Virus record (IMG/VR): IMGVR_UViG_3300028549_000507
Span: 1 to 64,000 of that record
Direction: 5' to 3' (one strand)
From: a virus
Taxonomy: Duplodnaviria > Caudoviricetes
DNA: 64,000 bases
The notes below the pieces were generated by a model. It searched no databases, was not told the DNA's origin, and saw nothing but the letters and a program-made list of their open reading frames with translations. The position numbers were made by a program, and so were the translations under genes. Of this stretch, positions 1,769 to 43,090 are shown one piece after another (the first letter of the stretch is position 1; each line of letters begins with the position of its first letter).

Positions 1769-1780
1769 AACATTTAATTG
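1769..1780 (+). promoter_or_regulatory. Late promoter AACA-N6-TG
   Basis: AACATTTAATTG upstream of 1816, divergent from the previous promoter. Confidence 0.7.
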
Positions 1781-1815
1781 GTATAAAAATTATTTTTTAA
1801 TTTAAGGAATGATCT

Positions 1816-7213: not shown

Positions 7214-9043
7214 ATGGACCATATCACTAATCAACCGATTAATGGTCGTATCGATGAACTCTACCAGACCTTCGAAGCGGAATATCGTCTTGACCCGTAT
7301 AACTCGGACAATCTTGGTCGTATCTTTGGAGATCCTGTAGCAACCGAATCGTACCTTAATCTTCTTCTTGCCGATGTGCCAGAAGAATCAAGTCGCGAGT
7401 CGATTTCACACCATATTCTCAACTCTATGAAAGTTCGCTCTGCCGGTGCAGCAGCTCAGTTCATGCGTTCAGAAGAAGGTTTCGACCATACATCTACACC
7501 AGGTACCAATATTGGTGCTCTTGATGCATATGTTCCTGCGACTATCCTTGGGTATCATGCAAAATCAATCATGCTTGATATCTATAAAACTCTGAATCAC
7601 AAAGACAGAGAATTCCCAATTCAGTTCGAACTCGCGTTCGCAATTGATGGAAACTCATCTAATCTTGCTGATCGTAAATTCCTCCCGAATGCAATTCGTG
7701 ATGGATCTATCGCTGGTCTCCTTAACCCTATGCGTATTGACCTTGCTGTCGGTGCTGCTGTGGTTGGTCAGACTCACATTATGACACATGATGGTAAAGC
7801 TTTTGCTAAACTTGGTGTTAAAGGTAATGCGATTGAAGATTCAGGTAAGAACCTTCAAGACTGGGCAATCGCCGAAGATATCCGTATCAATGAAATTGTA
7901 TACGATAAATCTGGTGATATTGCAACTGGTCCTGCTGGAACTGCTGTACTTGCTACCGAAATCGTAGCAGCTCGTGCAGAAGTTAAAGGATATGGCGGAG
8001 ACGTAGTTGCTCAGCGTCATATCGGTGTTGAAGTTCAGCTCACCCTCGCTTCTGGCGAAGTTGAAGAAGATTTCTTCACATTCTATATCAATCGTGATAC
8101 AGGTGAATACCGTGTTACACAGTGTTCAACTGGACGTATTAAGGGTTGTACAATCAATGCTGCATTCCTTAATCCTACAAACGATGCGTCTACAATCCGT
8201 CACGGTCGTGAAGTAATCACTCACCGTATCGTAGCAAATCCACGTAAAACCATGTCTCTTGGTCTTGCAATGGATACTGTTATGGATGAATTCGTTGCAG
8301 CTAATGCTGGTTCTTCTGATATCGTAAAATACGTATCAAATGAATTCTCAACAATTCTTGCCGGTGTAAACGACAATGATATGGAACAGCACATGATCGG
8401 TAATATCGATAAGTGTGTAGCTAATCAGAGTCTTCTCTACAAATATATCGCTTCTCGCCGTCTCGGTGGATTCGCTGCATTTGAAGAGATCGACCTTACA
8501 AAACGTGGACCTGGTGGTGAACGCCCACTTAGCTGGATGGAAGAAGCTATCAAAGATACTACTTCTAACCTTCTTATTATGGCTGAAACTGACACTCAGT
8601 TCTCTCAGGAATCAGATCGTGAATGGGTATTCGCTGGTTATCAGACTGACGTTAAACGTTTTGTTGATACAAAGTATACTACTGAAACTGCTGTTGGTGG
8701 AGAAACTCGTTTTGGTTTCAAGAAAATGAATGCATATGCGTACTCTGATAACTTCGGACAGCGTGTTAAATTCATTGGTTCATCTGACGTACGTTGGCAG
8801 GGTCGTCACGTATATGGATTCCTCCGTAGTAACTCACCTAAGGTTCAACCTACAGGTATCTACCACGGTTATGACTTCCGTATCGTGAAATCTCGTGACG
8901 CTCGTCAAATGGGTATCGACAGTATTTCATACTGGACACATGATACATGGGATATTCTTGCACTGTGTGCTGTTAAGCTCAAACTTATCAACCCACGTAA
9001 CCTGTACAAGAATCTTATGTCTGAAAGTTTCAAAAATCAGTAA
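7214..9043 (+). CDS. Major capsid protein precursor
   Basis: 609 aa with highly-expressed-type codon usage, SD AGGAGG, likely propeptide ending at RSEE|G, strong UUCG terminator, head-module context. Confidence 0.8.
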   Translation: MDHITNQPINGRIDELYQTFEAEYRLDPYNSDNLGRIFGDPVATESYLNLLLADVPEESSRESISHHILNSMKVRSAGAAAQFMRSEEGFDHTSTPGTNIGALDAYVPATILGYHAKSIMLDIYKTLNHKDREFPIQFELAFAIDGNSSNLADRKFLPNAIRDGSIAGLLNPMRIDLAVGAAVVGQTHIMTHDGKAFAKLGVKGNAIEDSGKNLQDWAIAEDIRINEIVYDKSGDIATGPAGTAVLATEIVAARAEVKGYGGDVVAQRHIGVEVQLTLASGEVEEDFFTFYINRDTGEYRVTQCSTGRIKGCTINAAFLNPTNDASTIRHGREVITHRIVANPRKTMSLGLAMDTVMDEFVAANAGSSDIVKYVSNEFSTILAGVNDNDMEQHMIGNIDKCVANQSLLYKYIASRRLGGFAAFEEIDLTKRGPGGERPLSWMEEAIKDTTSNLLIMAETDTQFSQESDREWVFAGYQTDVKRFVDTKYTTETAVGGETRFGFKKMNAYAYSDNFGQRVKFIGSSDVRWQGRHVYGFLRSNSPKVQPTGIYHGYDFRIVKSRDARQMGIDSISYWTHDTWDILALCAVKLKLINPRNLYKNLMSESFKNQ

Positions 9044-9070
9044 TTTCTCTGAATTGGTTCTTTTTGTTGC

Positions 9071-9100
9071 GAAGAGAGGGGCTTCGGCTCCTCTCTTTTC
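9071..9100 (+). terminator. Intrinsic terminator of the capsid operon
   Basis: GAGAGGGG-CTTCGG-CTCCTCTC followed by TTTT. Confidence 0.85.
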
Positions 9101-9111
9101 TTGTACCATAG

Positions 9112-9142
9112 AAAAAAAAGAGAGTGGCATTACACCACTCTC
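9112..9142 (-). terminator. Intrinsic terminator for the minus-strand operon
   Basis: GAGAGTGG/CCACTCTC stem with an 8-nt T-tract on the minus strand. Confidence 0.85.
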
Positions 9143-9149
9143 AATTATA

Positions 9150-9806
9150 TTATTCCGGTATATCTACTGGAGGTTTCTCACTTTCTTTTAATTCCTGCAT
9201 CATCTGAGCATGCTTTTCGGCCACCTTTCTAGCATTACCACTAAACTCAGGAGATGTTGTCATTACTTCAATAAATGCTTTGTGGAATTTACTAAACTCC
9301 GATATACATTCTTTAACTTTATTCTCAACCACCTCAAGAGAATCTAGAGTATGAAATCTTGATGTATCAAATGGATAATTGGCGGAAACGCGACAATATG
9401 GACATTGTATTTCAAAGACCGAAGGAACTTTAACATCTAAAATCTTAGATGCCAAATGTATCTCCCAGTAATAGAAGTTGCGATAATCCTGACTCATATC
9501 AGTTGGTCTTACTCTTGAAATAGCTTCTCTAAATCTATTAGGATCTATGGTATACTTTTCATATACCATCTTAAGAATACCATTATATTGATCCTTGAGT
9601 TGTTTAACATAATATTCTGTAGGATGGTTCGTCATAGGGTAGAATTCCGGAACCGTCCGATATCTTATGTATTCCCCACAATTAATACATGAGAATCGGA
9701 TCTCCTCAACCGTTGATTGCTGAGGAAGTTTTCCAGAAGGATGATCCAAATAATCATAGCGATTCTTATTACCTTTTACTGTTACTGCTAATCCTGTTCT
9801 ACTCAT
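9150..9806 (-). CDS. Hypothetical protein with two CxxC pairs (possible Zn-binding)
   Basis: CINC and CPYC in a 218 aa ORF. Confidence 0.6.
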   Translation of the reverse strand: MSRTGLAVTVKGNKNRYDYLDHPSGKLPQQSTVEEIRFSCINCGEYIRYRTVPEFYPMTNHPTEYYVKQLKDQYNGILKMVYEKYTIDPNRFREAISRVRPTDMSQDYRNFYYWEIHLASKILDVKVPSVFEIQCPYCRVSANYPFDTSRFHTLDSLEVVENKVKECISEFSKFHKAFIEVMTTSPEFSGNARKVAEKHAQMMQELKESEKPPVDIPE

Positions 9807-10147
9807 CCGTCACACCTTTGCTCAGATATGTATTCACTTGCACTTTTATACTTTGGAATGTGTGGTTGATCCTCCTCATCATTGATCGGGAGACTCTTCA
9901 TAACATTGGATAGACCATACCGGATATTGGTCATAATTTTCTCTTGATTTTTTATTAGAAGCTTATAAGTTTCTACCAAGTCATCGAGAATAGAAATTCT
10001 ATCAGTCATTTCCACAATTTGAGCATCCATCTCATTCGCATCAACAATAAATGTACGGATAATATCCGTAAGACGAGATATCTCGATATGAGCATCATCT
10101 CGCTCACGCTTGTACTTATCGGCCTTATTTTCTTTAGACATAATCAT
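9803..10147 (-). CDS. Hypothetical coiled-coil protein
   Basis: 114 aa; 4-nt stop/start overlap with the next gene. Confidence 0.6.
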   Translation of the reverse strand: MIMSKENKADKYKRERDDAHIEISRLTDIIRTFIVDANEMDAQIVEMTDRISILDDLVETYKLLIKNQEKIMTNIRYGLSNVMKSLPINDEEDQPHIPKYKSASEYISEQRCDG

Positions 10148-10171
10148 TCCTTTTTCTAAACATACGCAATT

Positions 10172-10555
10172 TTAAAGATGACATGATTCATCTTCCTCTA
10201 TAAGATTTATATTCCCATTCTCAAAACTAACTTTGAGAGAATTGATAGCCTTCCGCATATCCCCAGAGATATCGATTGTAGGAGGGAGATCCTGTTTCAT
10301 AAGTATATTAGCATACATACAATCAAGAACTCCCTTTAACGAATTGATAGCTGTTGAGTTTTGGAAGTATATAAATACATTTCCTTTTTCATCCGATTTC
10401 AAAGATTTTAAATCTTTAGATAATTCGATAAAAAACTTTCCATAACCCATAGGGTATACTAGAAGAATTTTCCCGAGAACCTTAGATGCCATTACTTTAA
10501 ATTCTGATTTTAAATTCCTAGAGGGTAGCTCAACGCTGATATCGGATACTCCCAT
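10172..10555 (-). CDS. Hypothetical protein
   Basis: 127 aa, SD AAGGA, operon context. Confidence 0.6.
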   Translation of the reverse strand: MGVSDISVELPSRNLKSEFKVMASKVLGKILLVYPMGYGKFFIELSKDLKSLKSDEKGNVFIYFQNSTAINSLKGVLDCMYANILMKQDLPPTIDISGDMRKAINSLKVSFENGNINLIEEDESCHL

Positions 10556-10570
10556 GATTCTATTCCTTTA

Positions 10571-10783
10571 TCACAAGATTTTTGAAACAATAAATGATGC
10601 AAATACTATAAGTATGATTGCTCCGATTATAACTTTGATAGTCATCCATTCGAAGTTAGGTTGAGTTGTACCACACGACTCATCCTCATCAAATCCATAC
10701 TCATCATCGAAATCATAATCCTCAGGTTCAATTCTCCAATTGCGATCTTTTGGATAATTGCTGAAAGAGTCTGTTTCATTCAT
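10571..10783 (-). CDS. Small membrane-anchored protein
   Basis: Acidic N-half and C-terminal hydrophobic helix (VIIGAIILIVFASFIV); SD AGGAGG. Confidence 0.65.
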   Translation of the reverse strand: MNETDSFSNYPKDRNWRIEPEDYDFDDEYGFDEDESCGTTQPNFEWMTIKVIIGAIILIVFASFIVSKIL

Positions 10784-10894
10784 TTAAATCCTCCTATTGT
10801 AGATTATAGAGTGCCTACATTCATAGACATCATGATTATATATATATTTAAAATTAAATATTAAAGGAGCTGGTTTTACCCAGCCCCAATATAA

Positions 10895-11212
10895 TTAAAT
10901 TAATACGGTTCGAATTGCATCGAATCCTGTAATCAATGCGCCAGTTACAACTGGTGTAATTCCGGTATTAGTTAGTCCACTTAGAATACTTGGAGCAGCC
11001 ATACCTGTAGTTACTGCATTTTTAAAATCTGTTGGTGCAATAATTACTATACCAAGTATACCAACTACGCCAGAAATAACACACTGTAACAGGAAATAAA
11101 GATTAATATCTCCGTATGCTTTAGTTGTAAGTATCTCCAACAGTCTAAGTAAAGAGATGGCCGTCCCTCCAATAAATCCGCCAATGATGTATTCTTTTGC
11201 AGGAATAGTCAT
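10895..11212 (-). CDS. Small multi-pass membrane protein (holin candidate)
   Basis: 105 aa with 2-3 hydrophobic segments and its own late promoter. Confidence 0.4.
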   Translation of the reverse strand: MTIPAKEYIIGGFIGGTAISLLRLLEILTTKAYGDINLYFLLQCVISGVVGILGIVIIAPTDFKNAVTTGMAAPSILSGLTNTGITPVVTGALITGFDAIRTVLI

Positions 11213-11243
11213 ATGGTTCCTCCACGATTAAATATTAGTAATA

Positions 11244-11255
11244 CACTAATATGTT
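11244..11255 (-). promoter_or_regulatory. Late promoter AACA-N6-TG
   Basis: AACATATTAGTG. Confidence 0.65.
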
Positions 11256-11258
11256 AAT

Positions 11259-11828
11259 TTAGATGTGGGGAATAGTTTCGTGTAAATGAGTTATAACTTT
11301 TACTCGTTTATCGAGCTTAAATTCAACGGCATGGTCATAATTGTGCGGAGTGTGTTCATTGCTAACCATAAATAATTTAGCTTTAGAACCTATACAATCT
11401 TTTATTGCGAAAGCATTATCATCCACAATTATAGAAGCGTTAAGGGAATCTACCAAAGGTCGTTTACTCTTCCCATCTGTAAACCAAACTTCTTCGATTT
11501 TTGGAATATGTCTTAGAACCATATCCAAAGTAGCCTTACCGATCGTAGATTCAGCTCGAGCAGTTACACATATTGGCTTATAACCTAACTGAATAAGTTC
11601 ATCAACAAACTCTTTAGCACCTGCAATCGGATTAAAACTTCCCATAATTGTAGGATCATTGAATCTCTTATTGATTAATTCCGCTACATAGCTTGGAATA
11701 TCCATCTTACTTAGATCATAATGTCTTTTAATATGACCTAAGTTAAGTTCATTCAAAGTATCAGTTATAACGGTATTTTTGAATAAAGTATCATCAATAT
11801 CTAATACTGCAATAGGGCGATAAAACAT
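11259..11828 (-). CDS. HAD-superfamily phosphatase (5'(3')-nucleotidase-like)
   Basis: Motif I VLDIDDTL, motif II VTAR, motif IV IVDDN; start moved to the ATG at 11828 (SD AGGA). Confidence 0.75.
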   Translation of the reverse strand: MFYRPIAVLDIDDTLFKNTVITDTLNELNLGHIKRHYDLSKMDIPSYVAELINKRFNDPTIMGSFNPIAGAKEFVDELIQLGYKPICVTARAESTIGKATLDMVLRHIPKIEEVWFTDGKSKRPLVDSLNASIIVDDNAFAIKDCIGSKAKLFMVSNEHTPHNYDHAVEFKLDKRVKVITHLHETIPHI

Positions 11829-11860
11829 AAAGTATCCTAAAGTTAAAGTTAAGTATCTTA

Positions 11861-11872
11861 CAATTAATTGTT
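11861..11872 (-). promoter_or_regulatory. Promoter AACA-N6-TG
   Basis: AACAATTAATTG upstream of the HAD gene. Confidence 0.6.
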
Positions 11873-11905
11873 TCGCATTAAATACAAAAACATATATAAA
11901 CCAAG

Positions 11906-11917
11906 AACATTTTATTG
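11906..11917 (+). promoter_or_regulatory. Late promoter AACA-N6-TG
   Basis: AACATTTTATTG. Confidence 0.65.
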
Positions 11918-11951
11918 TAAGTTTAATTTCCATCAATAAGGGAGATCGTAT

Positions 11952-13886
11952 ATGTTCGACAAGAATAGAACTAGTAACAATCTCAAAGACTTCTATGATA
12001 GTGGATTTGAGGCATCATACGATAGTAATATGTCCCAAATGATTCAAACAATCGTTGAAGAATCTAGAGAACTTTTCAAAAGTATGCTAAACGACAGTAA
12101 CACCAACGTCATAAACACTGCGGATTTTGATACTTTGGCAGAATTCCTTGGGAAATCTTTTACAGAACAACAGGAAGTCTACAAACTCAATAAGAGTTCA
12201 GCTATTAGACCTCTCGAATATTCTACAAGAGACATACTACTCCTTAATGAAGCAGTAATCCCGGGTAAAGACGACATCAAACATTTTTACAGATTTGATT
12301 CAGAGATATCCGTTCCAAGAGTTACCGAAAAATACATACTTCAGATTGTTAAAGATAGTCATAAAGGCGAAACTTACAATAGTTTGAACAATAATCATTC
12401 GGAAATACTCCCTACAGATATGATCGTTCCTATTTCATATTGTATTCCTACACTTGGAAATACTGATAAAATTGAATCTCTTTATAAGAGTAATGTATTG
12501 AATGTGTATACTAATATTGATAAAGATGAGTTCTTCTCATATATTATCAAAATTGTAAGTAGAATTCAATTCCAAACAAATCTCATTGTTATTGATAATT
12601 CCAACTATCTTTCTGTATTTAGATCAGTACTTTCGAACTTCGTATCAGTACTTTCTATGCCGAATATTGTAACAATGATTATTAAGGAACTCGCTGTAAC
12701 AGATGCTGTTAAAGCTGCCGTATTTATTAGTACGTTTTCTTCTATTAATAAATATTATGATCATATTTCAACATATGGAACTGTTGATTATGTGATCAAA
12801 ATGTTTAAGAAGGCTCTGTCTACTACTAAGATAACTGAAACTCATGAAAAAATGTGGCAATCACATAAAAATATCATTGATGTTATAACTGGTTGTAGAG
12901 GTATGGATTCTGTTTATTTCCACATGATATCTGATATCATGATGAATAAATCATTCAAAGATGTAAGTAATAAGAAAGAAGAATTCTTGAATTTCGTTAC
13001 TTCGAATTCTATAATTACGATTCTTATAAATGCGTCTATCTCATGTGGTGGACATAATACTGGAATTAGAGGATTGCATAATCTTATCGGAATTCATCCT
13101 GATGATTTGCGAGTTCTCGATGTTCAAATTCCTGTACTAAATGTTAGTGAGAGTATTATTGAAGCCATGTATACTGCTACAGTGAATAATATGGTTGCAA
13201 TATCTTACTCAACATTCTGCATGAAACATGTTCAGATAGCTAAAGGACGCGTTAAAGATACATCATCATACTCTATTACAGAGTATGGGTACGTAAAAAA
13301 TATCTTGGAAAGTTCTCTTGATATTCTTTATCATAATTCTAGAGTTTTGAGAAGAATGTATAAGAACTTGAATAGAAGAAATGAAGATTGTTGTGTTAAA
13401 TCGTATGAAGAAACCGGTAAATCATTCTTAACAGATCCGTATGAGATTAATATTATTTCAAGATTATCTAATCTACCTACGATTAGACGTATTGTTACGA
13501 ATCTTAACACAATTTCTAATGACTTTGAAACCTTACGTGGAGATCTTGATAAGAATCCTGTGTTTGGTGGAGCGAGTGCTATGACTATGAGTATCTCTGG
13601 AGAATCTGAAGATTACTTCTCTACAGAATTCTTTAAAGCAGATGTATCTTCTGAAAATTTCATTAAGCAGTTTACGAAGAATATCACTGTCGGATCCAAT
13701 GTTATTAAATATTGTGATGATCTCAAAGTTGATACAAGACTTGCAGTTGAATCTGGCGATGATGCTGGTATTACTGATTGTATAAAACGCTACGCGGTTC
13801 TCAAGGATTATGCTAATAGAATTACAAATGAAAGTAATTCTAAGATTGCATCTAAGACTATGAGATATGTTGCTAATTTGCTTTAA
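11952..13886 (+). CDS. Hypothetical late/virion protein
   Basis: 644 aa, late promoter, upstream of the terminase; several S/G/A-x-E sites. Confidence 0.55.
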   Translation: MFDKNRTSNNLKDFYDSGFEASYDSNMSQMIQTIVEESRELFKSMLNDSNTNVINTADFDTLAEFLGKSFTEQQEVYKLNKSSAIRPLEYSTRDILLLNEAVIPGKDDIKHFYRFDSEISVPRVTEKYILQIVKDSHKGETYNSLNNNHSEILPTDMIVPISYCIPTLGNTDKIESLYKSNVLNVYTNIDKDEFFSYIIKIVSRIQFQTNLIVIDNSNYLSVFRSVLSNFVSVLSMPNIVTMIIKELAVTDAVKAAVFISTFSSINKYYDHISTYGTVDYVIKMFKKALSTTKITETHEKMWQSHKNIIDVITGCRGMDSVYFHMISDIMMNKSFKDVSNKKEEFLNFVTSNSIITILINASISCGGHNTGIRGLHNLIGIHPDDLRVLDVQIPVLNVSESIIEAMYTATVNNMVAISYSTFCMKHVQIAKGRVKDTSSYSITEYGYVKNILESSLDILYHNSRVLRRMYKNLNRRNEDCCVKSYEETGKSFLTDPYEINIISRLSNLPTIRRIVTNLNTISNDFETLRGDLDKNPVFGGASAMTMSISGESEDYFSTEFFKADVSSENFIKQFTKNITVGSNVIKYCDDLKVDTRLAVESGDDAGITDCIKRYAVLKDYANRITNESNSKIASKTMRYVANLL

Positions 13887-13891
13887 TATTT

Positions 13892-13921
13892 GAGGTATAG
13901 GGGGAATACTCCCTATACCTC
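13892..13921 (+). terminator. 11-bp hairpin between 11952 and terL (terminator/attenuator)
   Basis: GAGGTATAGGG/CCCTATACCTC with a weak T-tract. Confidence 0.55.
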
Positions 13922-13945
13922 TTATAAAAATACTACGGAGGAATA

Positions 13946-16024
13946 ATGATACACTATACTACAACAAATATGTCATCTTTAAAGATGTCATATTTGCTAA
14001 GTGATATGGGTATAGATAATTGTAATTTTATGTTACGATTAGATAATCCAGAACTACTTAGAGTAGACCCATTCGATGAGAACCTAACCGATTTACAGAG
14101 AGCTATGATTACTCATGAGATAATCCATAACCCTTGGTATTTCTTCAGGGAGATTGTAAGAATCCCTGCAGGCGGAGCACTTATTCGATTTGAATTTCAT
14201 AGAGGAAATATAGCATTAATATGGGCAGTATTAAATGATATAAGTTGTTTTGTAGTATGGCCTAGACAAACGTACAAGACAACAACTATGACATGTATAT
14301 ATGATTACCTGTATTACTGGGGAAGTATGCATAATAAGATGGTATTCATAGCCCATGAAGATTCTATTGTAAAAAAGAATCTTCAAGGAGTTAAGGATAT
14401 TCGTGATAATCTGCCTCCATGGTTAAATCTATATGACAAATCGGATAGAGATAATGAAAAAGAAATGTATAATAGCATTGCCAATAACCGCATTACATGT
14501 AGGGCTCCTGCTCGTAATGAGGATGGTGCTAGAAAAGCTGGTCGAGGTCTTACCACTCCTGCACAATGGTTTGACGAAATTGCGTTCGTTAAGTATATCG
14601 CTGCTATGTATGATAGTATCTCATTTGCATACGCTCAAGCTTCTAAAAGTGCAAAAGAAAATGGCGCACCGCACCACCAGATAATGACAACTACCGCAGG
14701 ATTCCTTAATACGGACGAAGGACAGTGGTCACATAACTTTATGATGAGTTGTGCAGACTTTACTGAGCAATTCTATGATATGGATATCTCTGTAGTTAAA
14801 ACTATTATTGATAATACATCTTTATCGAATTTCTTGAATGTATCATTCATGTATTATGATTTGGGTAAAGATGAGTTCTATCTCGAAGAACAACGTCGAC
14901 GACTCGTTAACTCCCCGACTCCTAAGGATACATTGGATCGAGAAGTTTTAAATAAATGGAAAGATATTAGTACGGAGCACCCACTCGGTCAGGAACGTAT
15001 TGAAAGACTTAATGGACTTGTTAAGGATCCTAATGATTATGCTATAATAAATGATACTTATTCCGTTCGAATTTATGTCGATATGAATACATTTGATATA
15101 TCTAAACCATTGATCGGTGGACTTGACTTGGGAGGAAACCTTCGTGGCGACTTCTCAGCACTTACACTTGTAGACCCTACAGACTTTAAGGTTGTAGCTG
15201 TTATGCGAACTAACTCGCAAAGTACAACTTTGTTTGCATTCGCTATTATAACTATTATGACGGATATGTTTCCAAATATGATACTCTTTCCTGAACGAAA
15301 TTATAATGGCGCTATCATTGATATGATTGTATCATATCTTCCTAATTCTAGAAAAAGAGTATATTTCGAAGGGCCGGATAGACCTGGATTATTCAATAGT
15401 AAGGCTGTACGTCCTGTTCTTTTCAATATTATACTTAGAACAATTGTTGATGAATATGGTGATAGAATCTTTGATAAAACTATTATTACAGAAATATCAG
15501 GTTTGATTCGTACTAGAGCTGGAAGAATTGACCATAAGCCTGGCAAACACGATGATACTTTGATTAGTTTACTTTTGGCATTCTATTTTATATTGTATGT
15601 AGATGATAATGGATTGTATTTTGATAAGAGTATTATACTCTCTAACTTTGAAAAAGGTAATCTTATTGGGGATAAAACTCTAAAAAGTAAATCTAAAGCT
15701 AGAAAGAGTAAACTCGAAGCAATGGGATCACAATATTCTGCACTTATGGATAGTGCTTCTAAGGTATCTAGTTTGGATGATATTGCAAATATTATGTTTG
15801 AAAACCATTATTCTAAACGGGCGAATGTTAGTAGTAAAGTGGAAGTCTTTGAAATTGGAGGGGACAACTTTGATAATATTGAGGAAAGTGATAATATTAG
15901 TATTATCAGGAATGACCTTGATAAGATACGAGATGAGACTACCGTTAGAAGTCACCATGCTGATAATGTTAGGCCATCAAGTTCAAAAGAAAAAGATATG
16001 CTTACTGCTGTGTTTGGTTGGTAA
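13946..16024 (+). CDS. terL: Terminase large subunit
   Basis: NPWYFFREIVRIP, Walker A PRQTYKT, Walker B WFDE, TTTAG motif, nuclease acidic residues GLDLGG..DFS and HDD. Confidence 0.93.
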   Translation: MIHYTTTNMSSLKMSYLLSDMGIDNCNFMLRLDNPELLRVDPFDENLTDLQRAMITHEIIHNPWYFFREIVRIPAGGALIRFEFHRGNIALIWAVLNDISCFVVWPRQTYKTTTMTCIYDYLYYWGSMHNKMVFIAHEDSIVKKNLQGVKDIRDNLPPWLNLYDKSDRDNEKEMYNSIANNRITCRAPARNEDGARKAGRGLTTPAQWFDEIAFVKYIAAMYDSISFAYAQASKSAKENGAPHHQIMTTTAGFLNTDEGQWSHNFMMSCADFTEQFYDMDISVVKTIIDNTSLSNFLNVSFMYYDLGKDEFYLEEQRRRLVNSPTPKDTLDREVLNKWKDISTEHPLGQERIERLNGLVKDPNDYAIINDTYSVRIYVDMNTFDISKPLIGGLDLGGNLRGDFSALTLVDPTDFKVVAVMRTNSQSTTLFAFAIITIMTDMFPNMILFPERNYNGAIIDMIVSYLPNSRKRVYFEGPDRPGLFNSKAVRPVLFNIILRTIVDEYGDRIFDKTIITEISGLIRTRAGRIDHKPGKHDDTLISLLLAFYFILYVDDNGLYFDKSIILSNFEKGNLIGDKTLKSKSKARKSKLEAMGSQYSALMDSASKVSSLDDIANIMFENHYSKRANVSSKVEVFEIGGDNFDNIEESDNISIIRNDLDKIRDETTVRSHHADNVRPSSSKEKDMLTAVFGW

Positions 16025-16055
16025 AAAAAGAAGGAGAGCGTAATGCTCTCCTTCT
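16023..16055. terminator. Terminator, family T2
   Basis: A7-GAAGGAGAGC-GTAAT-GCTCTCCTTC; related copies at 27070, 28041 and 62420. Confidence 0.85.
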
Positions 16056-16211
16056 CTATTTATATCGACAGTCCTCAACGATCTGATCGATCGATCGGGA
16101 ATTATGTTTGTCGATATACTCTTTACAGTATCCCATACATTCCCTATACGATAAAAGAACTCCTCCGAAAATCATGATAAATATAAACCATTTTTTAATA
16201 GAAGCTTTCAT
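16056..16211 (-). CDS. Unannotated 51-aa cassette ORF (MKASIKKWFIFIMIFGGVLLSYRECMGYCKEYIDKHNSRSIDQIVEDCRYK)
   Basis: SD AAGGA plus TTATT-ATG, its own promoter/leader, stop abutting a terminator, N-terminal hydrophobic segment. Confidence 0.75.
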   Translation of the reverse strand: MKASIKKWFIFIMIFGGVLLSYRECMGYCKEYIDKHNSRSIDQIVEDCRYK

Positions 16212-16326
16212 AATAAATCCTTTTCTTGGTACCATAGATAAATATAATTAATTAGAGTGTATGGTATAGTCTTTCTATCCATTCTCCACTATTAAATATA
16301 TACTTTATAATTAATTTAAAAAACTT
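16212..16326 (-). promoter_or_regulatory. Early promoter plus family-A hairpin leader plus CTATGGTAC box
   Basis: TATATTTAATAGT at 16288-16300; 48/49 nt identical to 62742-62790. Confidence 0.85.
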
Positions 16327-16355
16327 AAAAAAGAAGAGGGATTACTCCCTCTTCT
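16327..16355 (-). terminator. Terminator, family T1
   Basis: AGAAGAGGGA-GTAA-TCCCTCTTCT plus T-tract; related copies at 29980, 54214 and 62813. Confidence 0.85.
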
Positions 16356-16362
16356 AATAATT

Positions 16363-16998
16363 TCATTTAAAAGCAATCGACCGAACTACCATTGAACAGA
16401 GTGCCGCCGTAGGATTTAATACTGTCATATGGGGTTCTCCGAACTCTTTAATACCACTCTCTTCGAATACGATAAAGAATGAATTATGATTATAATGCTT
16501 AGCAAGAAGCATTGTATGATATATCATCTGATCTACTTTTGCCAAGTCTTCTTCTTTAAGATAATCTAGAAGATATAAGATTGGCGGGTATTTACCATCT
16601 CTAGTAATAACCTCTCCAAATTTACCTTCATACCATTCACCGATATCCTCAAGTTCAACCGATACGCAGTATGAATCATTGAGAGCTTTAAACTCCCCTT
16701 TAGGTTTATTCTTCTTCATATCAAATCTTGATCTGAAATGAATATTATAACCATTATCGATATATGCATCATCGAACATATATACAATGGTTTCAACGGT
16801 TTCAACGCTAGATTCATTTCCTATCAATCTTAAATTGTTGACATTAGGTTGATTGTTGGGTATCATCATATTAGTAGGATTCATATGCATACCATTGACC
16901 CCAGCATCAATGGGCAATCCTCCCTGACCCATATTAAAATTAACAGACATTGAATGAACGTTCATTCCTCCAAATAAAGACCCTCCAGAACCAAACAT
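16363..16998 (-). CDS. Hypothetical early protein
   Basis: 211 aa, SD AAGGAG, G/N/M-rich N-terminus; upstream TATATATTACTTAATG promoter variant. Confidence 0.65.
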   Translation of the reverse strand: MFGSGGSLFGGMNVHSMSVNFNMGQGGLPIDAGVNGMHMNPTNMMIPNNQPNVNNLRLIGNESSVETVETIVYMFDDAYIDNGYNIHFRSRFDMKKNKPKGEFKALNDSYCVSVELEDIGEWYEGKFGEVITRDGKYPPILYLLDYLKEEDLAKVDQMIYHTMLLAKHYNHNSFFIVFEESGIKEFGEPHMTVLNPTAALCSMVVRSIAFK

Positions 16999-17091
16999 AA
17001 CTTCTCCTTATTAAAGTTGCATCTCATTAAGTAATATATAGACAATTTTATACTTTGAGTATTTATTTGTTACTTTGATCATAAAAAAGTA

Positions 17092-17103
17092 AACATCTTA
17101 TTG
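17092..17103 (+). promoter_or_regulatory. Late promoter AACA-N6-TG
   Basis: AACATCTTATTG. Confidence 0.7.
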
Positions 17104-17131
17104 TATTAAACTTTTACATAGGATTAATTGT

Positions 17132-17770
17132 ATGAGTGTCAACGATTTAGTATCAGTTTCTGTTGAACAAGATAGCGACATGCTCGGTCTTGAAAAAATA
17201 TTACTACAAAACATCACAAACCAAGTAACTGACTTTTATGGCGATTATACTGGGGATGTATCTACTGAAGTCGATTATATACGGGAGTATATTGAGAATC
17301 GGTTTGAGGGAGATTTTGAGTATATTATTGAAAACTTTGAAACAGTCTGTAATGTGAGTAATCTCGAGGAAAGCTTCGATACAATATCTAGAGGTATTGT
17401 AGATATATTGAAATCTCACGTTGGAATTTGTTTTGATCTTGATAGAGAGAATGTATACTTCTCTGATATCTATAGTGTCTATTGTCTATTTGTACTTGCA
17501 TTTAGAAATACTTTAACAGTATCAACTCTAAATCATTACAGAAAATATAGACAGAAAATTAATATTGCACAGGTTACTATTGATAAGATCTGTGATTATT
17601 GTTTGAGTGATGAGTTCTCTCCAACTGATGAGTTTATTTCAAATTTAGCTCAATCAGGAGAGTTGACAGCTTCAGAAATCCAATCCAAAATTGACGATAA
17701 TGTAATATTTATAGATGAATTTGTTTTCTCATCTTACATATACAGATTCGTTACCAATTCTTTATCGTAA
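17132..17770 (+). CDS. Hypothetical late protein
   Basis: 212 aa, acidic, late promoter. Confidence 0.6.
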   Translation: MSVNDLVSVSVEQDSDMLGLEKILLQNITNQVTDFYGDYTGDVSTEVDYIREYIENRFEGDFEYIIENFETVCNVSNLEESFDTISRGIVDILKSHVGICFDLDRENVYFSDIYSVYCLFVLAFRNTLTVSTLNHYRKYRQKINIAQVTIDKICDYCLSDEFSPTDEFISNLAQSGELTASEIQSKIDDNVIFIDEFVFSSYIYRFVTNSLS

Positions 17771-17781
17771 GGGCGATATAA

Positions 17782-18525
17782 ATGGAAGAAGTATTTAAGA
17801 AGTTCTTTACACATAAACCTGATGATAAGTCACTGGTTCTAAAAGAACCTTATTATGCAGAGATCAGAATTCCTATAGAAATGTTTGACAAAGGTATAGC
17901 TAATATATTCGGTGATACTGTCAGTACTTTCTTCTTTGTGGATATTTATATTTGGGATGAGTATACAGACGTTCCTCTTATTAAAGATGCTACAAAAATA
18001 AATATAAGAATTCCAAACATACTATCATCTAGACCCACTAGAATAAAATATGATAGTAAGAATTCTGAGAATATATTAGAGTTTATGCCCAACGACCAAG
18101 TCATAATGACAACTATGGTTCCTAAGAAATCTGAAGTTGTTGTTGAATTCTTTGAGATAATGTTGGATGGTAAGATTCCTGATGATATACCATATAATGA
18201 AATATCTGGTTATTTCGAGGAATGTGCTAGAATTAATGGAGTTAACCTTCGGGCAAACTCTTTATATGTAGACGCAATGGTTGCTTCTATATGTAGAGAT
18301 CCCAATAATAACTCTAGACAATTCAAAGAACTTATAGCGGAGAATCCTAAAGTTTCAATGTATTCTAGAAAAGTTGTTAATGCGGACTTAATACCGTCAA
18401 TGACTTCTCAATTTAACGCTATAACAAATAGTAATCCTAAATACGGTATCACATCGTCTATAGGAGCTGTTCGTAGTGGGGATATGGAAATCATTGAAAC
18501 TGACATTGACGTTGCAATTAAATAA
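17782..18525 (+). CDS. Putative virion RNA polymerase subunit, beta-prime C-terminal fragment
   Basis: NGVNLRANSLYVDAMVASICR resembles QGVKINDKHIEVIVRQMLR, and TSQFNAITNSNPKYGITSSI resembles [20 protein letters not shown] of bacterial RpoC (aligned by eye). Confidence 0.55.
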   Translation: MEEVFKKFFTHKPDDKSLVLKEPYYAEIRIPIEMFDKGIANIFGDTVSTFFFVDIYIWDEYTDVPLIKDATKINIRIPNILSSRPTRIKYDSKNSENILEFMPNDQVIMTTMVPKKSEVVVEFFEIMLDGKIPDDIPYNEISGYFEECARINGVNLRANSLYVDAMVASICRDPNNNSRQFKELIAENPKVSMYSRKVVNADLIPSMTSQFNAITNSNPKYGITSSIGAVRSGDMEIIETDIDVAIK

Positions 18526-18561
18526 ATAAATTGAAATTAACATTATTAATACCCATATAAT

Positions 18562-18573
18562 AACATTGTAATG
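18562..18573 (+). promoter_or_regulatory. Late promoter AACA-N6-TG
   Basis: AACATTGTAATG upstream of the sheath gene. Confidence 0.7.
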
Positions 18574-18622
18574 GTACATTTGTTATATTATGTGTAGTAA
18601 AATTTAAACTCGGAGGTTAATC

Positions 18623-20485
18623 ATGGGACTGATGCATGATAGCTTAGTTAGAACTACACTCGTAGACAATTCAATCGCCATCCCGACCCCAGATCCAATC
18701 CAGACCGGTTTTACATTCCTTCAGCCTTTCTTTGCAAAAAGAGGACGTCAGAATGAAATTATCCGTAAAGGTGGTATCGGGGCTTTTGAACGTGAGTACG
18801 GCAATGATGTCGACAACGTTACAAAGTATGGTCACGGTGGACTTATCGCTAAAGCAGTATTGCAGGGCGGTGGAATTGTTGACGCGTGTCGACTTATGCC
18901 AGATGATGCGACAAAATCTGGATTGGTCATTTCGCTTATTCTTGATGAAAATGGAACTGATCCAAAAATCACAATCCATGCAGGAGCCGTAGATTCAACA
19001 AAGACTACTGCGGTAAATCTTGTTAAAGATGATGCATTCAAACTCGTTGCGGCTGACACAACTACAGTTAAACGTTACCCGATTATCTTGCTTGAATCTA
19101 CAAGTACTGGTTCTTTTGGTAATTCATTTACTGCAAAACTTTCATTGGATACTACTAGAGATGGTAAAAATCCTGATGGAAGACGTTATGTTCTTGATCT
19201 TGCTGATGCTGGTAATAGAATCGGTGATAAATTTGAAGTAATTAGCTTCTCATTTAATCCTGATGCTAAAACAACTCCATCAAGTGAAGCACTTGATAGT
19301 TTTGACGTTGTGTTTGATTCGTACAAACGTGCATTCGGAATTCCTGTAGACGCTACTTATTCTCCTGAGAATTTTGAAGCACTTCTTACAGATCTCGAAA
19401 CAGATCATGAAACAGCAGTATATGAAGCAGTTGGAGCTACAGATGAAGAATCTTATGCTACTAAAAAATGGCTGCTTGACCCTATTACTGGTACAATTTT
19501 CGATGAAGAAAATGATTACACTGGATTTGATACTTTTGCACTTCCTACTGAACTTACGTTCTCTGGTGGAGATGATGCCGGGGTATTCGATAATGATGCG
19601 GAGGGACAGAAGCTCAGATCTGATCTTCTTGTAGACTTCTATGAAGGTAACATTGATAAAAATATCTATGATGCAAGAATAATCGATTGTGGTATTACTC
19701 TCGATGCATGGTGGCCTGCTGAAGTTAAAGCTGCTATGGTTGGAACATTCGGAAAAGAAGTTCGTGATGACATTTATGTTATCGCTGACCTTGGTCCTGA
19801 TGCGACTACTGCTGCAAGTGCAACAAGTGCTGCCGCGACTCTTATTGCCGGTGTATCTTCTACTTATGGAATGGTTTCTATCAATTATCATAATGGTAAA
19901 ACAAGAGATAGAGCTCGTAATATCAGAACTTCTGGTAACTATGAGATCGCGAAATCACTCCCTAAACTGTATAGAACTAGAGGAGCATTTACTGTTCATG
20001 CTGGATATCTTTCCGGTCGTGTTGAGTATATGGATTTCGAATACTTCCCTAAAATCTACAAAAACGATTCTGAGATCAAGCCTCTTAAGAAGCAGAAACT
20101 TAGATTCGCAATGCAGCTCGATAGAAGTGGAGACCTTTTCTATATGTCCGATTCTAGCCAGTATAATACAGATTTCTCAGTACTTGGTTCTGAAAGAAAT
20201 CTTATATTTGCCGGTGACGTTATGCGTACATTTAAGAAAGTTATGGCTAAGTATGCGTTCCATCCTGAGAATTTCGAAGGTGCAAAACGCGACGCAACTA
20301 CAGAACTTAATACAATACTTTCTACAAGTTGGTTCCCTGCGTCTATTCCTGTTTCGTTCGAAATCTTCCAAACTCGTAATGATAAAATTAATAAAACTGC
20401 GACTGTTGATGTCGGTATTACCTTCCCTGATGTCGTTGAGACTTGGAAAGTTACCATTACAGCCAACAGACAGCCTTTGGTTTAG
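18623..20485 (+). CDS. Tail sheath protein
   Basis: 620 aa; FFAKRG, SGGDDAG, ITLDAWWPAEVK and a C-terminal ATVDVGITF..VETWKVTI sheath pattern; followed by the tube gene. Confidence 0.8.
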   Translation: MGLMHDSLVRTTLVDNSIAIPTPDPIQTGFTFLQPFFAKRGRQNEIIRKGGIGAFEREYGNDVDNVTKYGHGGLIAKAVLQGGGIVDACRLMPDDATKSGLVISLILDENGTDPKITIHAGAVDSTKTTAVNLVKDDAFKLVAADTTTVKRYPIILLESTSTGSFGNSFTAKLSLDTTRDGKNPDGRRYVLDLADAGNRIGDKFEVISFSFNPDAKTTPSSEALDSFDVVFDSYKRAFGIPVDATYSPENFEALLTDLETDHETAVYEAVGATDEESYATKKWLLDPITGTIFDEENDYTGFDTFALPTELTFSGGDDAGVFDNDAEGQKLRSDLLVDFYEGNIDKNIYDARIIDCGITLDAWWPAEVKAAMVGTFGKEVRDDIYVIADLGPDATTAASATSAAATLIAGVSSTYGMVSINYHNGKTRDRARNIRTSGNYEIAKSLPKLYRTRGAFTVHAGYLSGRVEYMDFEYFPKIYKNDSEIKPLKKQKLRFAMQLDRSGDLFYMSDSSQYNTDFSVLGSERNLIFAGDVMRTFKKVMAKYAFHPENFEGAKRDATTELNTILSTSWFPASIPVSFEIFQTRNDKINKTATVDVGITFPDVVETWKVTITANRQPLV

Positions 20486-20495
20486 GAGATAACTA

Positions 20496-21551
20496 ATGAG
20501 TTCAGTAAAATTTGACAAAGCAAAAGATGGTAATACTACCGTCACTGGTATCTACGGAAACCAGAATAACGCTAAACTTAGAGGCTGGGAAAGTGGTACT
20601 ACTGGTGTTGGTGGAGATGTTCGAGTTCGCCTCGGTCATCAACAGGGCGTTCCGTCGCTCGACCATAACACAGTATCTATCGACGAACCATTGCGTCTTG
20701 GTCGATTTATTTGCGTATGGTTGAGACTTCCTACCTTTATTCACGCTGACGTACGTTCTTATTGGAACTACTTCTTCCAGGATAAAGTTCTTGAGTTTAA
20801 CGGCCTTGCAGATAATGAAATTGGAGTAATGTCTCGTACCTCTGGAGCGGTTGGTCGTCAGGATGAATATGCTGGTTTCTACAAAGAAAACAACAATAAA
20901 TTCCAGATCAAAGTTCCAGAAGTAAAAGGTTCTCCTGTTCGTAAATTGTGTAAATACTATGTCACAGGTCTTTCTGACTCTGTAACCGGTGTTGCACATT
21001 TCCACGGAAATGCAGACCTTCGTTTCAGTAAGATTAACTATGGCGGAGACTTCCTCTACGTTCTTCTTGGACCTACTATGCGTCCTGATGATATTGAATT
21101 TGCATGTGCATATTTCAATTGTTTCATGACAAAAGACTATATCGGTCATTTGAATAGTGGTGCTATTGGTGAACCTGGTGATGCGGGTCTTACTTTCGAT
21201 ATCGAATTCGCAGGTTACTATGTGCAGAATAATACAATCAACAAACTCGCAATGAAAATTGTTGAAGCTGTTGGACTGTATAAAGACTGTGTTGAAGACA
21301 TTGTTCTTCCTGCATATGTATATGAGTCATTCCTTAAAGATGGTAATGCTCCAAACCTTGCAGAAGCGTATGGTGTATATATCGATGCTAAACTCGCAAG
21401 AGCTAAAACTAGCGCAGATACAGCGGCACTTACTACTGGTCTTGGGGATTTCGTTACCGACTATGCTGTCGGAAACACTCCTCAGACTACAACTGTTCTT
21501 AGCGAAACAAATACCCCAAGTGGTCCAGACATCGTTGTTCCAACAGTTTAA
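20496..21551 (+). CDS. Tail tube protein
   Basis: Directly after the sheath, highly-expressed codon usage, beta-rich pattern ending FDIEFAG. Confidence 0.7.
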   Translation: MSSVKFDKAKDGNTTVTGIYGNQNNAKLRGWESGTTGVGGDVRVRLGHQQGVPSLDHNTVSIDEPLRLGRFICVWLRLPTFIHADVRSYWNYFFQDKVLEFNGLADNEIGVMSRTSGAVGRQDEYAGFYKENNNKFQIKVPEVKGSPVRKLCKYYVTGLSDSVTGVAHFHGNADLRFSKINYGGDFLYVLLGPTMRPDDIEFACAYFNCFMTKDYIGHLNSGAIGEPGDAGLTFDIEFAGYYVQNNTINKLAMKIVEAVGLYKDCVEDIVLPAYVYESFLKDGNAPNLAEAYGVYIDAKLARAKTSADTAALTTGLGDFVTDYAVGNTPQTTTVLSETNTPSGPDIVVPTV

Positions 21552-21569
21552 TACTCTATGTATTATAGA

Positions 21570-21598
21570 AGAAAGGTGGGGAAACCCACCTTTCTTTT
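21570..21598 (+). terminator. Intrinsic terminator after the tube gene
   Basis: GAAAGGTGGG-GAAA-CCCACCTTTC-TTTT. Confidence 0.9.
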
Positions 21599-21610
21599 AA
21601 TTTATCAATT

Positions 21611-21622
21611 AACATTTAAATG
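21611..21622 (+). promoter_or_regulatory. Late promoter AACA-N6-TG
   Basis: AACATTTAAATG. Confidence 0.7.
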
Positions 21623-21653
21623 AAAGTAAATAATTTATTATGTAGGGATAGTT

Positions 21654-22325
21654 ATGGAAGAAATCTCTGGAGTAACTTCTGATGTCAAATCGAATGATAA
21701 TATAGTTATCTCCTCAAAAGTTAGTGGAGATATAGTGCCGTTCTTTAAAGAACAAGATTTCATGCTAGACGATAAGACTTACATAAGTATGATTAAGAAT
21801 ATCGAGTGGCAAATACGTTCTAGTAAAGAATACAGTGCCTATATTAGATATTTAAAAGAGGATATAACTCCCCCTTTAAATCATTGTATGGTTTATAGTA
21901 ATATTACGGATGATCTTGCTCCTATAGAAATGCATCATGGTCCTATATTTACATTATTTGATTATGTAGAGATAGTTATGATATATCAATTCAAAAAGAA
22001 TATACCATTTTCATCATCTTACATATATCATCTCGTCATGGAAGAGCATCGATTGGGACATGTTCAAACTGTAATGTTATCTGAAGCAGTGCATAAAGCT
22101 ATACATAATACTAAAAAAGGATATGATGCTAAATTCTTAGATATAAAGATGGCTCATGGAGATATTTTAGGATTCCTTAATAGATATTACGAAGGATTAA
22201 CTCTAGGTCATATTGGTAAAATAGATAAATATCTTAAATCTTACGAGCAGAATGTTAGTGAAAAGAGTGATGGATTCTTTGAAGAATTTATAACGAAATG
22301 GTCAAAAGAAATTCTAGCTGTGTAA
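21654..22325 (+). CDS. HNH-like protein
   Basis: HCMV..IEMHHGP..VMLSEAVHKAIH pattern resembling a His-Me finger. Confidence 0.5.
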   Translation: MEEISGVTSDVKSNDNIVISSKVSGDIVPFFKEQDFMLDDKTYISMIKNIEWQIRSSKEYSAYIRYLKEDITPPLNHCMVYSNITDDLAPIEMHHGPIFTLFDYVEIVMIYQFKKNIPFSSSYIYHLVMEEHRLGHVQTVMLSEAVHKAIHNTKKGYDAKFLDIKMAHGDILGFLNRYYEGLTLGHIGKIDKYLKSYEQNVSEKSDGFFEEFITKWSKEILAV

Positions 22326-22340
22326 GTATAGGGGTTATAA

Positions 22341-24929: not shown

Positions 24930-24946
24930 ACGATTTGGAGAATTAA

Positions 24947-25792
24947 ATGAATAAAATCGAAGATAAGTACGGTATTCATTCCGACGTTAAAATTTACGAC
25001 TTGAATGGCACTCTTTTGCAACATAAAAAAAATATTGTTGCACTTGGCGGACGTATTGCTCTTGAAAACATCTTCAAAAGATCTACAAGCGTTGGAGCAT
25101 ATCATAAGACTATTCGCGAGCTTCTCATAATGCAGAAAGCATCAGAATATACAACTGCTACAGATTTTGAAGTTCTTGAAACCCCAGATACACAGGTTAT
25201 TGGAGACTATTTTGATAGATCTATCAAATACTTCTGTATTGGTAATGGTGGTATTGAAAATACAACTACTGTACAGATGGCTAAACCGAAACCTCATGAG
25301 ACAAGACTTTATAACTTTGTTCCATTCCGATGCGTTACGGTTGCTTCTGGCGGACTTCCTGCGGGAGAAGTAGATCGTTATGCATTGAAATGTAAAGAGA
25401 AGATTGATGGCGTTGACTATTATACTTACTACTTCAAGAAATTTGAAGATTCTACAAATAACAATATTAAAGTTGTCAAATCGGATGGGGTTGATTATGA
25501 GCCTGAATATTCTGATAGTGATTTCAATAATGTTGGTATGCGTAATGAGTATATCCATTCATTCTATGAGATTTCTCTGAATATCGATGCCGTTGATTTT
25601 AAAGAGTGGTATAAAGCCAAACATGATAGCCAACTTACAGATGCATTCACTACGGAATTCGGTCTTGTTATTGGTAATAATGTTGGTAACACTGTTAAAA
25701 ATGCCGAGCTGTTCTCTAAGCTTGTACATTCGCCAATCAATCTCAATCTTGAGAATAATGGTGCAATGATCGTTTATACAGTGTATTCTTAA
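24947..25792 (+). CDS. Virion structural protein (baseplate/fibre attachment-like)
   Basis: NIVALGG..YFCIGNGG..TEFGLVIG..ELFSKL pattern; tail-module context. Confidence 0.45.
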   Translation: MNKIEDKYGIHSDVKIYDLNGTLLQHKKNIVALGGRIALENIFKRSTSVGAYHKTIRELLIMQKASEYTTATDFEVLETPDTQVIGDYFDRSIKYFCIGNGGIENTTTVQMAKPKPHETRLYNFVPFRCVTVASGGLPAGEVDRYALKCKEKIDGVDYYTYYFKKFEDSTNNNIKVVKSDGVDYEPEYSDSDFNNVGMRNEYIHSFYEISLNIDAVDFKEWYKAKHDSQLTDAFTTEFGLVIGNNVGNTVKNAELFSKLVHSPINLNLENNGAMIVYTVYS

Positions 25793-25798
25793 TCTATA

Positions 25799-25837
25799 AA
25801 TTTATATAGGGCGGTCTTTCGGCCCCCTATATAAATT
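25799..25837. other. Long intergenic hairpin immediately before the SD of the RNAP gene
   Basis: AATTTATATAGGG/CCCTATATAAATT (13 bp) plus an inner GGTC-TTTC-GGCC stem; no T-tract. Confidence 0.8.
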
Positions 25838-25847
25838 AGGAGGAACT

Positions 25848-27071: not shown

Positions 27072-27107
27072 AAAAAAAGAAGGAAGCGTAATGCTTCCTT
27101 CTTTTTT
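27070..27107. terminator. Bidirectional terminator, family T2
   Basis: A-tract-GAAGGAAGC-GTAAT-GCTTCCTTC-T-tract. Confidence 0.85.
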
Positions 27108-27108
27108 C

Positions 27109-27369
27109 CTAACATTCAATTCCGTACGTTAGGAAGTACTGCATTTCGTGAAAGCTTCTCATAGCTTTCACTACTGATGGAATAGTTGAGACATACGTTT
27201 CAACGATATCCCATGATCCTGTTACTGGGTCGTGAAACATATCGGCCAGGCAGATGATATCATCTGAATTCTGGGGGTAGTTCCCAGAATACATCGTGGT
27301 GTGATTTTCAGATGACGTGGCTGTAACGAAATTTGAAAAGTCAGAATTGGTTTCGATAGTTCTTTTCAT
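27109..27369 (-). CDS. 86-aa cassette ORF with hairpin-dense coding sequence
   Basis: GGATCTATT-ATG start, family-C leader, stop next to a terminator. Confidence 0.7.
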   Translation of the reverse strand: MKRTIETNSDFSNFVTATSSENHTTMYSGNYPQNSDDIICLADMFHDPVTGSWDIVETYVSTIPSVVKAMRSFHEMQYFLTYGIEC

Positions 27370-27488
27370 AATAGATCCAATCCGGGCGTATTGTTCGCCC
27401 TATAATATAATTAATAGAAGGTAAGTTAACACTCGTTACTTCCTTCTTTGTTCACTATTAAATATACACATCAATAATCGTTTATTAC
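27370..27488 (-). promoter_or_regulatory. Early promoter plus family-C two-hairpin leader
   Basis: TATATTTAATAGT at 27454-27466; 57/58 nt identical to 54150-54207. Confidence 0.85.
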
Positions 27489-27519
27489 AAAAAAAAAGAG
27501 GTGACTAATGTCACCTCCC
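27489..27519 (-). terminator. Intrinsic terminator
   Basis: GAGGTGAC-ATTA-GTCACCTC plus T-tract. Confidence 0.85.
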
Positions 27520-27523
27520 ATTT

Positions 27524-27931: not shown

Positions 27932-28040
27932 AATAAGTCCGTTCCTAGTACTCTTGAGTACCATAGAAAAATGTTATAAGATATAGATCAGTCAATCTAT
28001 TCTAGTATTAAATATATAATCTATAATTCATTTAAAAAAT
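27932..28040 (-). promoter_or_regulatory. Early promoter plus family-B hairpin leader plus CTATGGTAC box
   Basis: TATATTTAATACT at 28004-28016; ATAGAT/ATCTAT stem; near-identical to 29331-29420 and 43213-43265. Confidence 0.85.
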
Positions 28041-28071
28041 AAAAAAAAAGAGGAAGCACAATGCTTCCTCC
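28041..28071 (-). terminator. Terminator, family T2
   Basis: GAGGAAGCA-TTG-TGCTTCCTC plus T-tract. Confidence 0.85.
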
Positions 28072-28081
28072 TAAAAATTGA

Positions 28082-28426: not shown

Positions 28427-28448
28427 ATTTTTTCTCCATTTTTAAAAA

Positions 28449-43088: not shown

Positions 43089-43090
43089 AG

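Follow-up and report, generated by a model that had tools for sequence, protein, structure and literature searches.

A T-run and nine-base box behind a putative capsid gene of an uncultured jumbo phage, probably an unfilled slot for cassettes of small early genes

The segment at positions 9095-9120 of the phage DNA described here is probably the empty form, either unoccupied or vacated, of a polymorphic slot for small early-gene cassettes. The nine-base box in this segment (GTACCATAG on the plus strand, CTATGGTAC on the minus strand) is, within the same reading and with the same moderate confidence, a repeated regulatory boundary of a phage clade, which would be used by ordinary recombination as in the promoter-early stem-loop (PeSL) cassettes and would not be a dedicated core. 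This reading is preferred because other cassettes of this phage are exchanged at plain terminators and promoters and because no recombinase was found in the contig (72% complete). Swap points of this kind are already known from T4-type phages; here the setting is a jumbo phage, and the boundary motif is conserved.

The window, that is, the whole stretch of 64,000 nucleotides analysed, is the first 64 kb of a linear IMG/VR virus contig of 200,251 bp (G000; 33% GC, CheckV 72% complete), 5.6% of which is intergenic DNA. The source is an uncultured AR9/phiKZ-like jumbo phage of the nucleus-forming type with its own early and late promoter types. The large terminase is nearly the only gene of the window that could be named from public phage records, PHROGs and Pfam. 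The capsid region matched public phage records neither as DNA nor as protein, the capsid protein gave no related loci in the viral contig collection, Rfam matched no family on the window, and no RNA runs with this phage are listed among public runs. Metagenome homologues of the 609-aa gene that ends at 9043 (46-97% identical) adjoin a phiKZ-type prohead protease (Peptidase_S80), so the label "capsid operon" is a fair one. Reading of all upstream regions of the contig gave two promoter classes. The early class is an AT-rich motif, TATATATTTAATAGTG, standing directly after terminators; about 11 exact and further variant copies lie right behind terminator T-runs, each followed by a small ORF and then by a terminator. 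The late class comprises 47 intergenic copies of AACA-N6-T(G/A), which is the AR9-type late promoter. These late copies can be written more closely as AACA-N4-WW-T(G/A) (consensus AAACAT-N-TTAAT-G), are directed at larger and structural genes (window 1770-1790, 11900-11930, 17090-17110 and 18560-18585, and 43 elsewhere in the contig) and stand back to back between several divergent gene pairs.

The box occurs five times on the plus strand of the window (9103, 16229, 27958, 43204 and 62718) against 0.23 copies expected, a number reached in none of 100 shuffles, and all five copies are intergenic, as an earlier note on this DNA had stated. The positional bias extends to the whole contig, where six of seven copies are intergenic (P = 2e-7 given the intergenic share); the seventh, at 196917, lies within a long ORF of the opposite strand and is probably due to chance. 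In all six intergenic copies the minus strand bears CTATGGTAC in the sense direction of the surrounding genes, immediately preceded by a T-rich run. Five of them are in early-gene leaders and the sixth, at 9103, is between two convergent terminators. At the four leader sites of the window the order is early promoter, 39-53 nt, T-run, box, 17-26 nt and ATG, with the box starting 26-35 nt ahead of the ATG. The leader copies are spread over three mutually unrelated leader families. Family A, all on the minus strand, includes the copy at 16229-16237, whose downstream hairpin arm is deleted, and the one at 62702-62732 (box 62718-62726, hairpin arm GTGCCAAGAAAA), and family B, on the same strand, includes those at 27942-27971 (box 27958-27966, with the T-run and the downstream arm GTACTAGGAA making up a pre-SD hairpin) and 43192-43217 (box 43204-43212, hairpin arm TACCAGGAA). 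The copy at 200232 is truncated by the contig end, and two other contigs of the same strain show this fifth leader site behind an early promoter.

The site behind the capsid gene reads on the minus strand H1 (9142-9120), T8 (9119-9112), box (9111-9103), AAGAAAAG and the H2 hairpin (9096-9073), that is, terminator, box, AAGAAAAG and terminator, just as first described. H1 (9120-9142, minus strand) is the intrinsic terminator of a minus-strand 218-aa gene (9150-9806) and has a 10-pair stem followed by T8; it is conserved in two other strains (L011 and L024) with compensating changes. The T8 run (9112-9119, minus strand) is the U-tract of H1 and also part of a 19-nt repeat, CTC-T(8-9)-CTATGGT, at which the cassette of a sister strain is joined. 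H2 (9073-9102, plus strand) consists of a hairpin (9073-9096) and a TTTTCTT tract, and ends the plus-strand 609-aa putative major capsid gene (7214-9043). The orphan box (9103-9111, minus strand) is the single remaining repeat of the cassette slot, of which the sister has two, 755 nt apart. The segment AAGAAAAG, first taken to begin the family-A SD segment, is the TTTTCTT U-tract of H2 in reverse complement, and reads GATAAAAG in the sister and ATTAAAA in a third strain; since it varies between strains as a U-tract does, it is not a piece of the SD segment, and that assignment was rejected. A metagenome scan with a 20-mer adjoining H2 returned unrelated matches only, the phage's own and near records being outside the scanned set.

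The filled form of the slot was found in relatives. When contigs of four metagenome runs were aligned to window 8900-28899, a strain from run X5 matched 8900-9119 and then 9113-9806, with about 750 nt between the two matches. A sister contig (L024, also L023) was retrieved via the 90% cluster of the capsid protein, and is the closest strain in hand, its capsid DNA being 97.5% identical to that of the window. Its minus strand reads H1, T9, CTATGGTGA, an early-type promoter, SD, a 128-aa ORF, a 77-aa ORF, a terminator, T9, CTATGGTAC and H2. The two-ORF cassette of 755 nt lies precisely at the junction of T-run and box, and is flanked by direct repeats that are exact over 19 nt (CTC-T9-CTATGGT), or 84% identical over 31 nt, at a spacing of 755. 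Between the genes the sister has 861 nt and the window 106 nt, and the difference, 755, is exactly one repeat unit. Both cassette proteins are small and hydrophobic and are without an enzyme or nuclease domain; the 128-aa protein gave no related loci in the viral contig collection.

Because the sister holds a cassette between two T9-CTATGGT copies and the window holds one repeat, the suggestion that 9103 is an unoccupied target or an excision scar was borne out; its counter-prediction, that relatives would lack any insertion here, is refuted by the sister, the one relative found to carry a cassette there. Loss of the cassette in the window and gain in the sister both fit these data. The third strain (L011, run SRR21524771; 93.4%) reads H1'-T9-TAC-H2' and lacks CTATGG, and it is itself rearranged at the locus: a 284-aa gene with its own early promoter (L011:2198-3308) has an H1-like terminator on one side and the 218-aa gene's homologue on the other. 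This cassette sits beside the homologue of window 9120-9149, and the capsid-distal junction is thus a hot spot with three states. At the slot position of more distant relatives there is a single two-way terminator, and near-identical contigs (L009, L010 and L173-L175) added nothing beyond these strains.

The motif extends to a second species. A scan of viral contigs with T6 plus the box gave mostly chance matches, and a 181-kb contig whose capsid is 69% identical (G001) and another of the same phage (G002) were among the matches listed; a scan with the early promoter plus the box gave seven matches, all unrelated and due to chance. G001 has seven exact copies of TTCTATGGTTC together with near-variants. 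Its form of the motif, CTATGGTTC, is found in both leader and terminator contexts, and the box is kept at 8/9 positions across the two species. The leader copies of G001 read box, short loop, AACCAGGAA, SD and ATG. On the terminator side, three copies read terminator, T8, box, TGTAATAA and early promoter, two degenerate boxes stand ahead of late promoters, and one orphan (L147, G001:C1:46591-46601, also L014:5654) is between convergent genes. The terminator of a NUMOD4 homing-endonuclease gene precedes this orphan, which directly adjoins the convergent gene's stop codon; the geometry mirrors that of window 9103.

In leaders, the T-run and the box pair with a downstream G(A/T)ACCAGGAA, an arm that ends just ahead of the ribosome-binding site, giving a short interrupted hairpin. 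When eight copies, taken from three strains and two species, were aligned, 91% of the cells paired, and sliding the partner lowered this share to 30-55%. One compensatory swap, A-U to U-A, separates the two species, so the covariation amounts to essentially one event. Three leader copies (16229, 200232 and L150) and all of the terminator-side copies are without the hairpin partner. The earlier idea that the box may pair with TACCATA in family-A leaders as an alternative fold holds in the sequence, as this complement is present in those leaders; no other intergenic complement of the box was found. The sister's ortholog of the 43204 leader (L026) retains the hairpin with a different loop and one extra pair.

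Leader and terminator-side copies are not equally well kept. The species-specific 9-mer is retained in 11 of 11 leader copies, and four of ten terminator-side copies are variant or decayed (TGA, TGC, CTATAGTTC and CTATGATTC; Fisher P = 0.035). On this ground the comparison suggests that the leader copies are the constrained ones and that the terminator-side copies, including 9103, would be by-products. Sequence similarity also breaks off at the box. Family-A leaders have a variable spacer of 0, 7 or 12 nt directly after it, paralogous family-B leaders diverge immediately after it, and at the 43204 locus identity to the sister is 96% on the upstream side up to and including the box, drops to 68% in the 120 columns that follow and then returns to 90%. 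Breaks gathered in this way around the box could be a sign of targeted breakage. The patch at 43204 (window 43080-43203 versus L026:2219-2340) lies in the gene for a tiny membrane peptide behind the box, running from the 3' edge of the box to the middle of the ORF.

Other cassettes of this phage come and go at different boundaries. The cassette at 16.0-16.3 kb, which has a box inside, is absent from the sister between terminator repeats of the form CTTCT-T(6-9), with no box at the joint, and a joint from 27474 to 28006 between strains links two promoter copies. Behind the terminators of the cassettes at 16229, 27958, 43204 and 62718 there is no second box. A search of the 200-kb contig (72% complete) for integrase, resolvase, GIY-YIG, NUMOD4 and HNH domains found none over the cut-off, with no match to PF00589 or PF00239; the sole nuclease-like match is to HNH_3, at 20-22 bits under a cut-off of 24.8 and 178 kb away. 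This weak match is a 228-aa ORF (G000:C1:187447-188133, minus strand) behind an early-type promoter, outside the window. A recombinase could be missing from the contig because it is only 72% complete. As these other indels lie at plain terminators and promoters and the contig yielded no recombinase gene, the proposal that the box is a dedicated recombination core was not upheld.

The preferred mechanism can be put as follows. The T-run plus CTATGGT(A/T)C would have its home in the early-gene leader, as the 5' strand of the pre-SD hairpin, and there the copies may act in the mRNA, on its stability or on translation. The same 14-19 bases would also come to lie directly behind some terminators. 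Two copies in direct orientation could therefore recombine via the ordinary homologous or short-homology recombination of the phage, and the intervening DNA would be looped out or taken in. The process would be general recombination between short regulatory repeats, with no dedicated enzyme, and the orphan copy at 9103 would have no function of its own.

This pattern matches the PeSL cassettes, and the event at 9103 is read as ordinary direct-repeat recombination for that reason. In the plastic regions of T4-type phages, small genes, most of them unknown, are set between repeated blocks made up of an early promoter with a terminator stem-loop, recombination between such short regulatory repeats shuffles these genes, and recombination of two nearby repeats deletes the segment between them (Arbiol et al. 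2010, PMC2839356). Likewise, a composite of early promoter and terminator frames small genes here, and indels between close strains are bounded by repeats (the 755 nt at 9103, the 16.0-16.3 kb cassette and the joint of 27474 to 28006). There are three differences: the promoters here are AT-rich, the type expected for a jumbo-phage virion polymerase and not for sigma-70; the repeat at 9103 is a T-run with a nine-base box, elsewhere a strand of the leader hairpin, and is neither promoter nor stem; and the host of the cassettes is an uncultured AR9/phiKZ-like jumbo phage.

A point against this best explanation is that the box stays perfectly identical, as an island, among leaders of three unrelated families and among terminators that are likewise unrelated. 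Leftovers of plain recombination would not be preserved to this degree, and a sequence-specific reader of the box, be it a protein, a nuclease or a polymerase, may therefore exist. More specifically, though with low probability, the T-run and CTATGGT might be read by a factor dedicated to the clade, either a nuclease or recombinase that breaks the DNA at this site and drives exchange of box-to-terminator units or a non-virion polymerase acting at a phiKZ-like TATG start. If so, the edge-clustered breaks and the conservation in two contexts across species would be the footprint of that factor; the nuclease or recombinase version would amount to a phage "integron without integrase", and the polymerase version would place a TATG start beside AR9-type promoters within one genome.

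One alternative, which we regard as rather unlikely, is that the box creates an RNA 5' end, being a TATG-type promoter for the non-virion RNA polymerase or a cleavage site of an endoribonuclease, with 9103 as a stranded signal. In the promoter version the T-run would be an upstream element and the G of TATG the start, providing continued expression of the box-bearing early genes; in the cleavage version an endoribonuclease would trim the leader and leave a protective 5' hairpin. In phiKZ the non-virion RNA polymerase reads late promoters of the form 5'-TATG-3', with G as +1 (Yakunina et al. 2015, PMC4666361), and all four bases are required (PMC4666361, PMC7598289). The box has this TATG core in every copy, conserved bases just downstream and a short distance to genes. 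It is intergenic and sense to transcription at the leader distances given above, and the hairpin would begin at or beside the new 5' end. In addition, one canonical late promoter of this phage, AACA-N6-TG-GTAC, has ATGGTAC in common with the box, and the parts of PMC7598289 dealing with promoters describe AR9 genes that carry early as well as late promoters. However, among about 16 intergenic sites in the two phages the box is never the sole promoter of a gene; each site either adjoins a promoter, early or late, or has no gene in front of it, and both orphan copies (window 9103 and L147) point into a convergent gene at its 3' end. Every intergenic copy of G000 and G001 comes after small genes of the early type, and the box was not found to be a late-gene promoter.

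The abundant late promoters here, unlike those of phiKZ, are of the AR9 type (AACA-N6-TG, 47 copies). In the Bacillus phage AR9 the late promoter has AACA at -11 to -8, six bases, T(-1) and A/G(+1), according to the promoter section of PMC7598289. As in AR9, both promoter classes are present, and the box is within early transcription units (Lavysh et al. 2017, PMC5312081; PMC7598289, in their promoter sections); the box itself fits neither AR9 class, and the AR9 promoter descriptions in those sections hold no counterpart of it. An AACA at AR9 spacing precedes the box at 27958 and in the sister's 43204 ortholog, which speaks for the promoter version. The same element, the defining feature of the 47 late promoters, is by one count missing or misplaced at four of the six sites, and site by site it is one base out of place at 43204 and 200232 and lacking at 9103, 16229 and 62718, which speaks against it.

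It is more doubtful still that T-run/CTATGGT is the core site of a dedicated site-specific recombinase or homing-type nuclease, with 9103 as a true empty attachment site and with units from a box to the next terminator T-run being inserted, excised or converted in an integron-like or homing-like manner. Such a system would account for a sister cassette bounded exactly by two copies, for similarity that breaks at the box edges, for the fixed orientation of the motif and for its conservation in both contexts in two species, and the orphan copy of G001 does lie behind the terminator of a NUMOD4 homing-endonuclease gene. Against it stand the domain search of the 72%-complete contig, which gave nothing over the cut-off, the cassettes themselves, which have no enzyme genes and mostly no second box after the terminator, and those other cassettes that come and go without any box. 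Compared with integrons (attI/attC, IntI), the phage likewise has self-contained or promoter-less ORF units placed behind a resident promoter, a short conserved core and empty and filled sites in relatives, but no integrase gene was found in the contig (72% complete), cassette ends have no attC-like imperfect palindrome, and most cassettes have their own promoter and only one box; neither a tyrosine recombinase nor a site bounding every cassette was found. In G000, moreover, no homing-endonuclease gene was found in or beside a mobile segment.

It is very improbable that the box is functionless, its copies stemming from recent duplication of leaders or cassettes and 9103 being a chance or hitch-hiking fragment, for although each of the leader families A and B is present as two or more copies that are nearly identical and part of the repetition is therefore duplication, the 9-mer is common to three leader families and to terminators with otherwise unrelated flanks, is kept at 8/9 positions despite a capsid identity of only 69% in the other phage, where the partner arm carries a compensating change, and is present in five copies against 0.23 expected.

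With ordinary recombination at a repeated regulatory boundary as the preferred reading, the locus is a base-resolved case of gain or loss of small early genes in an uncultured jumbo phage of the nucleus-forming type, in which natural strains show one slot filled, empty and holding a different cassette. The PeSL idea would then reach beyond T4-type phages to phages that rely on RNA polymerases of their own. In addition, a short cross-species motif has been singled out, in leaders and after terminators, with the candidate roles of RNA hairpin strand, start or cleavage signal and break site.

Two other functions considered for the box were rejected. No hammerhead core with arms matching the box was found, which disposes of a trans-acting hammerhead. 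As the start codon of an upstream or leaderless ORF the box would be in frame with the main ATG at 16229, 27958, 43204 and L026 but would give stubs of 3-7 codons at L028, L148 and L150, and this role was rejected as inconsistent. At those three sites of the window and in the sister's copy, the ATG in the box shares the reading frame of the annotated start, which lies 9-12 codons downstream, and at other copies it gives stubs of 3-13 codons; this is probably a coincidence. In the same early block a further small-gene indel is seen, namely a 127-aa gene at window 10172-10555 that is absent from the sister (joint 10051 to 10567). Finally, a strain from run X2 diverges at window 28040, just upstream of the early promoter at 28006, and has there another terminator, T8 and CTATGGTGC, which is a third case of terminator, T-run and box ahead of an early promoter.
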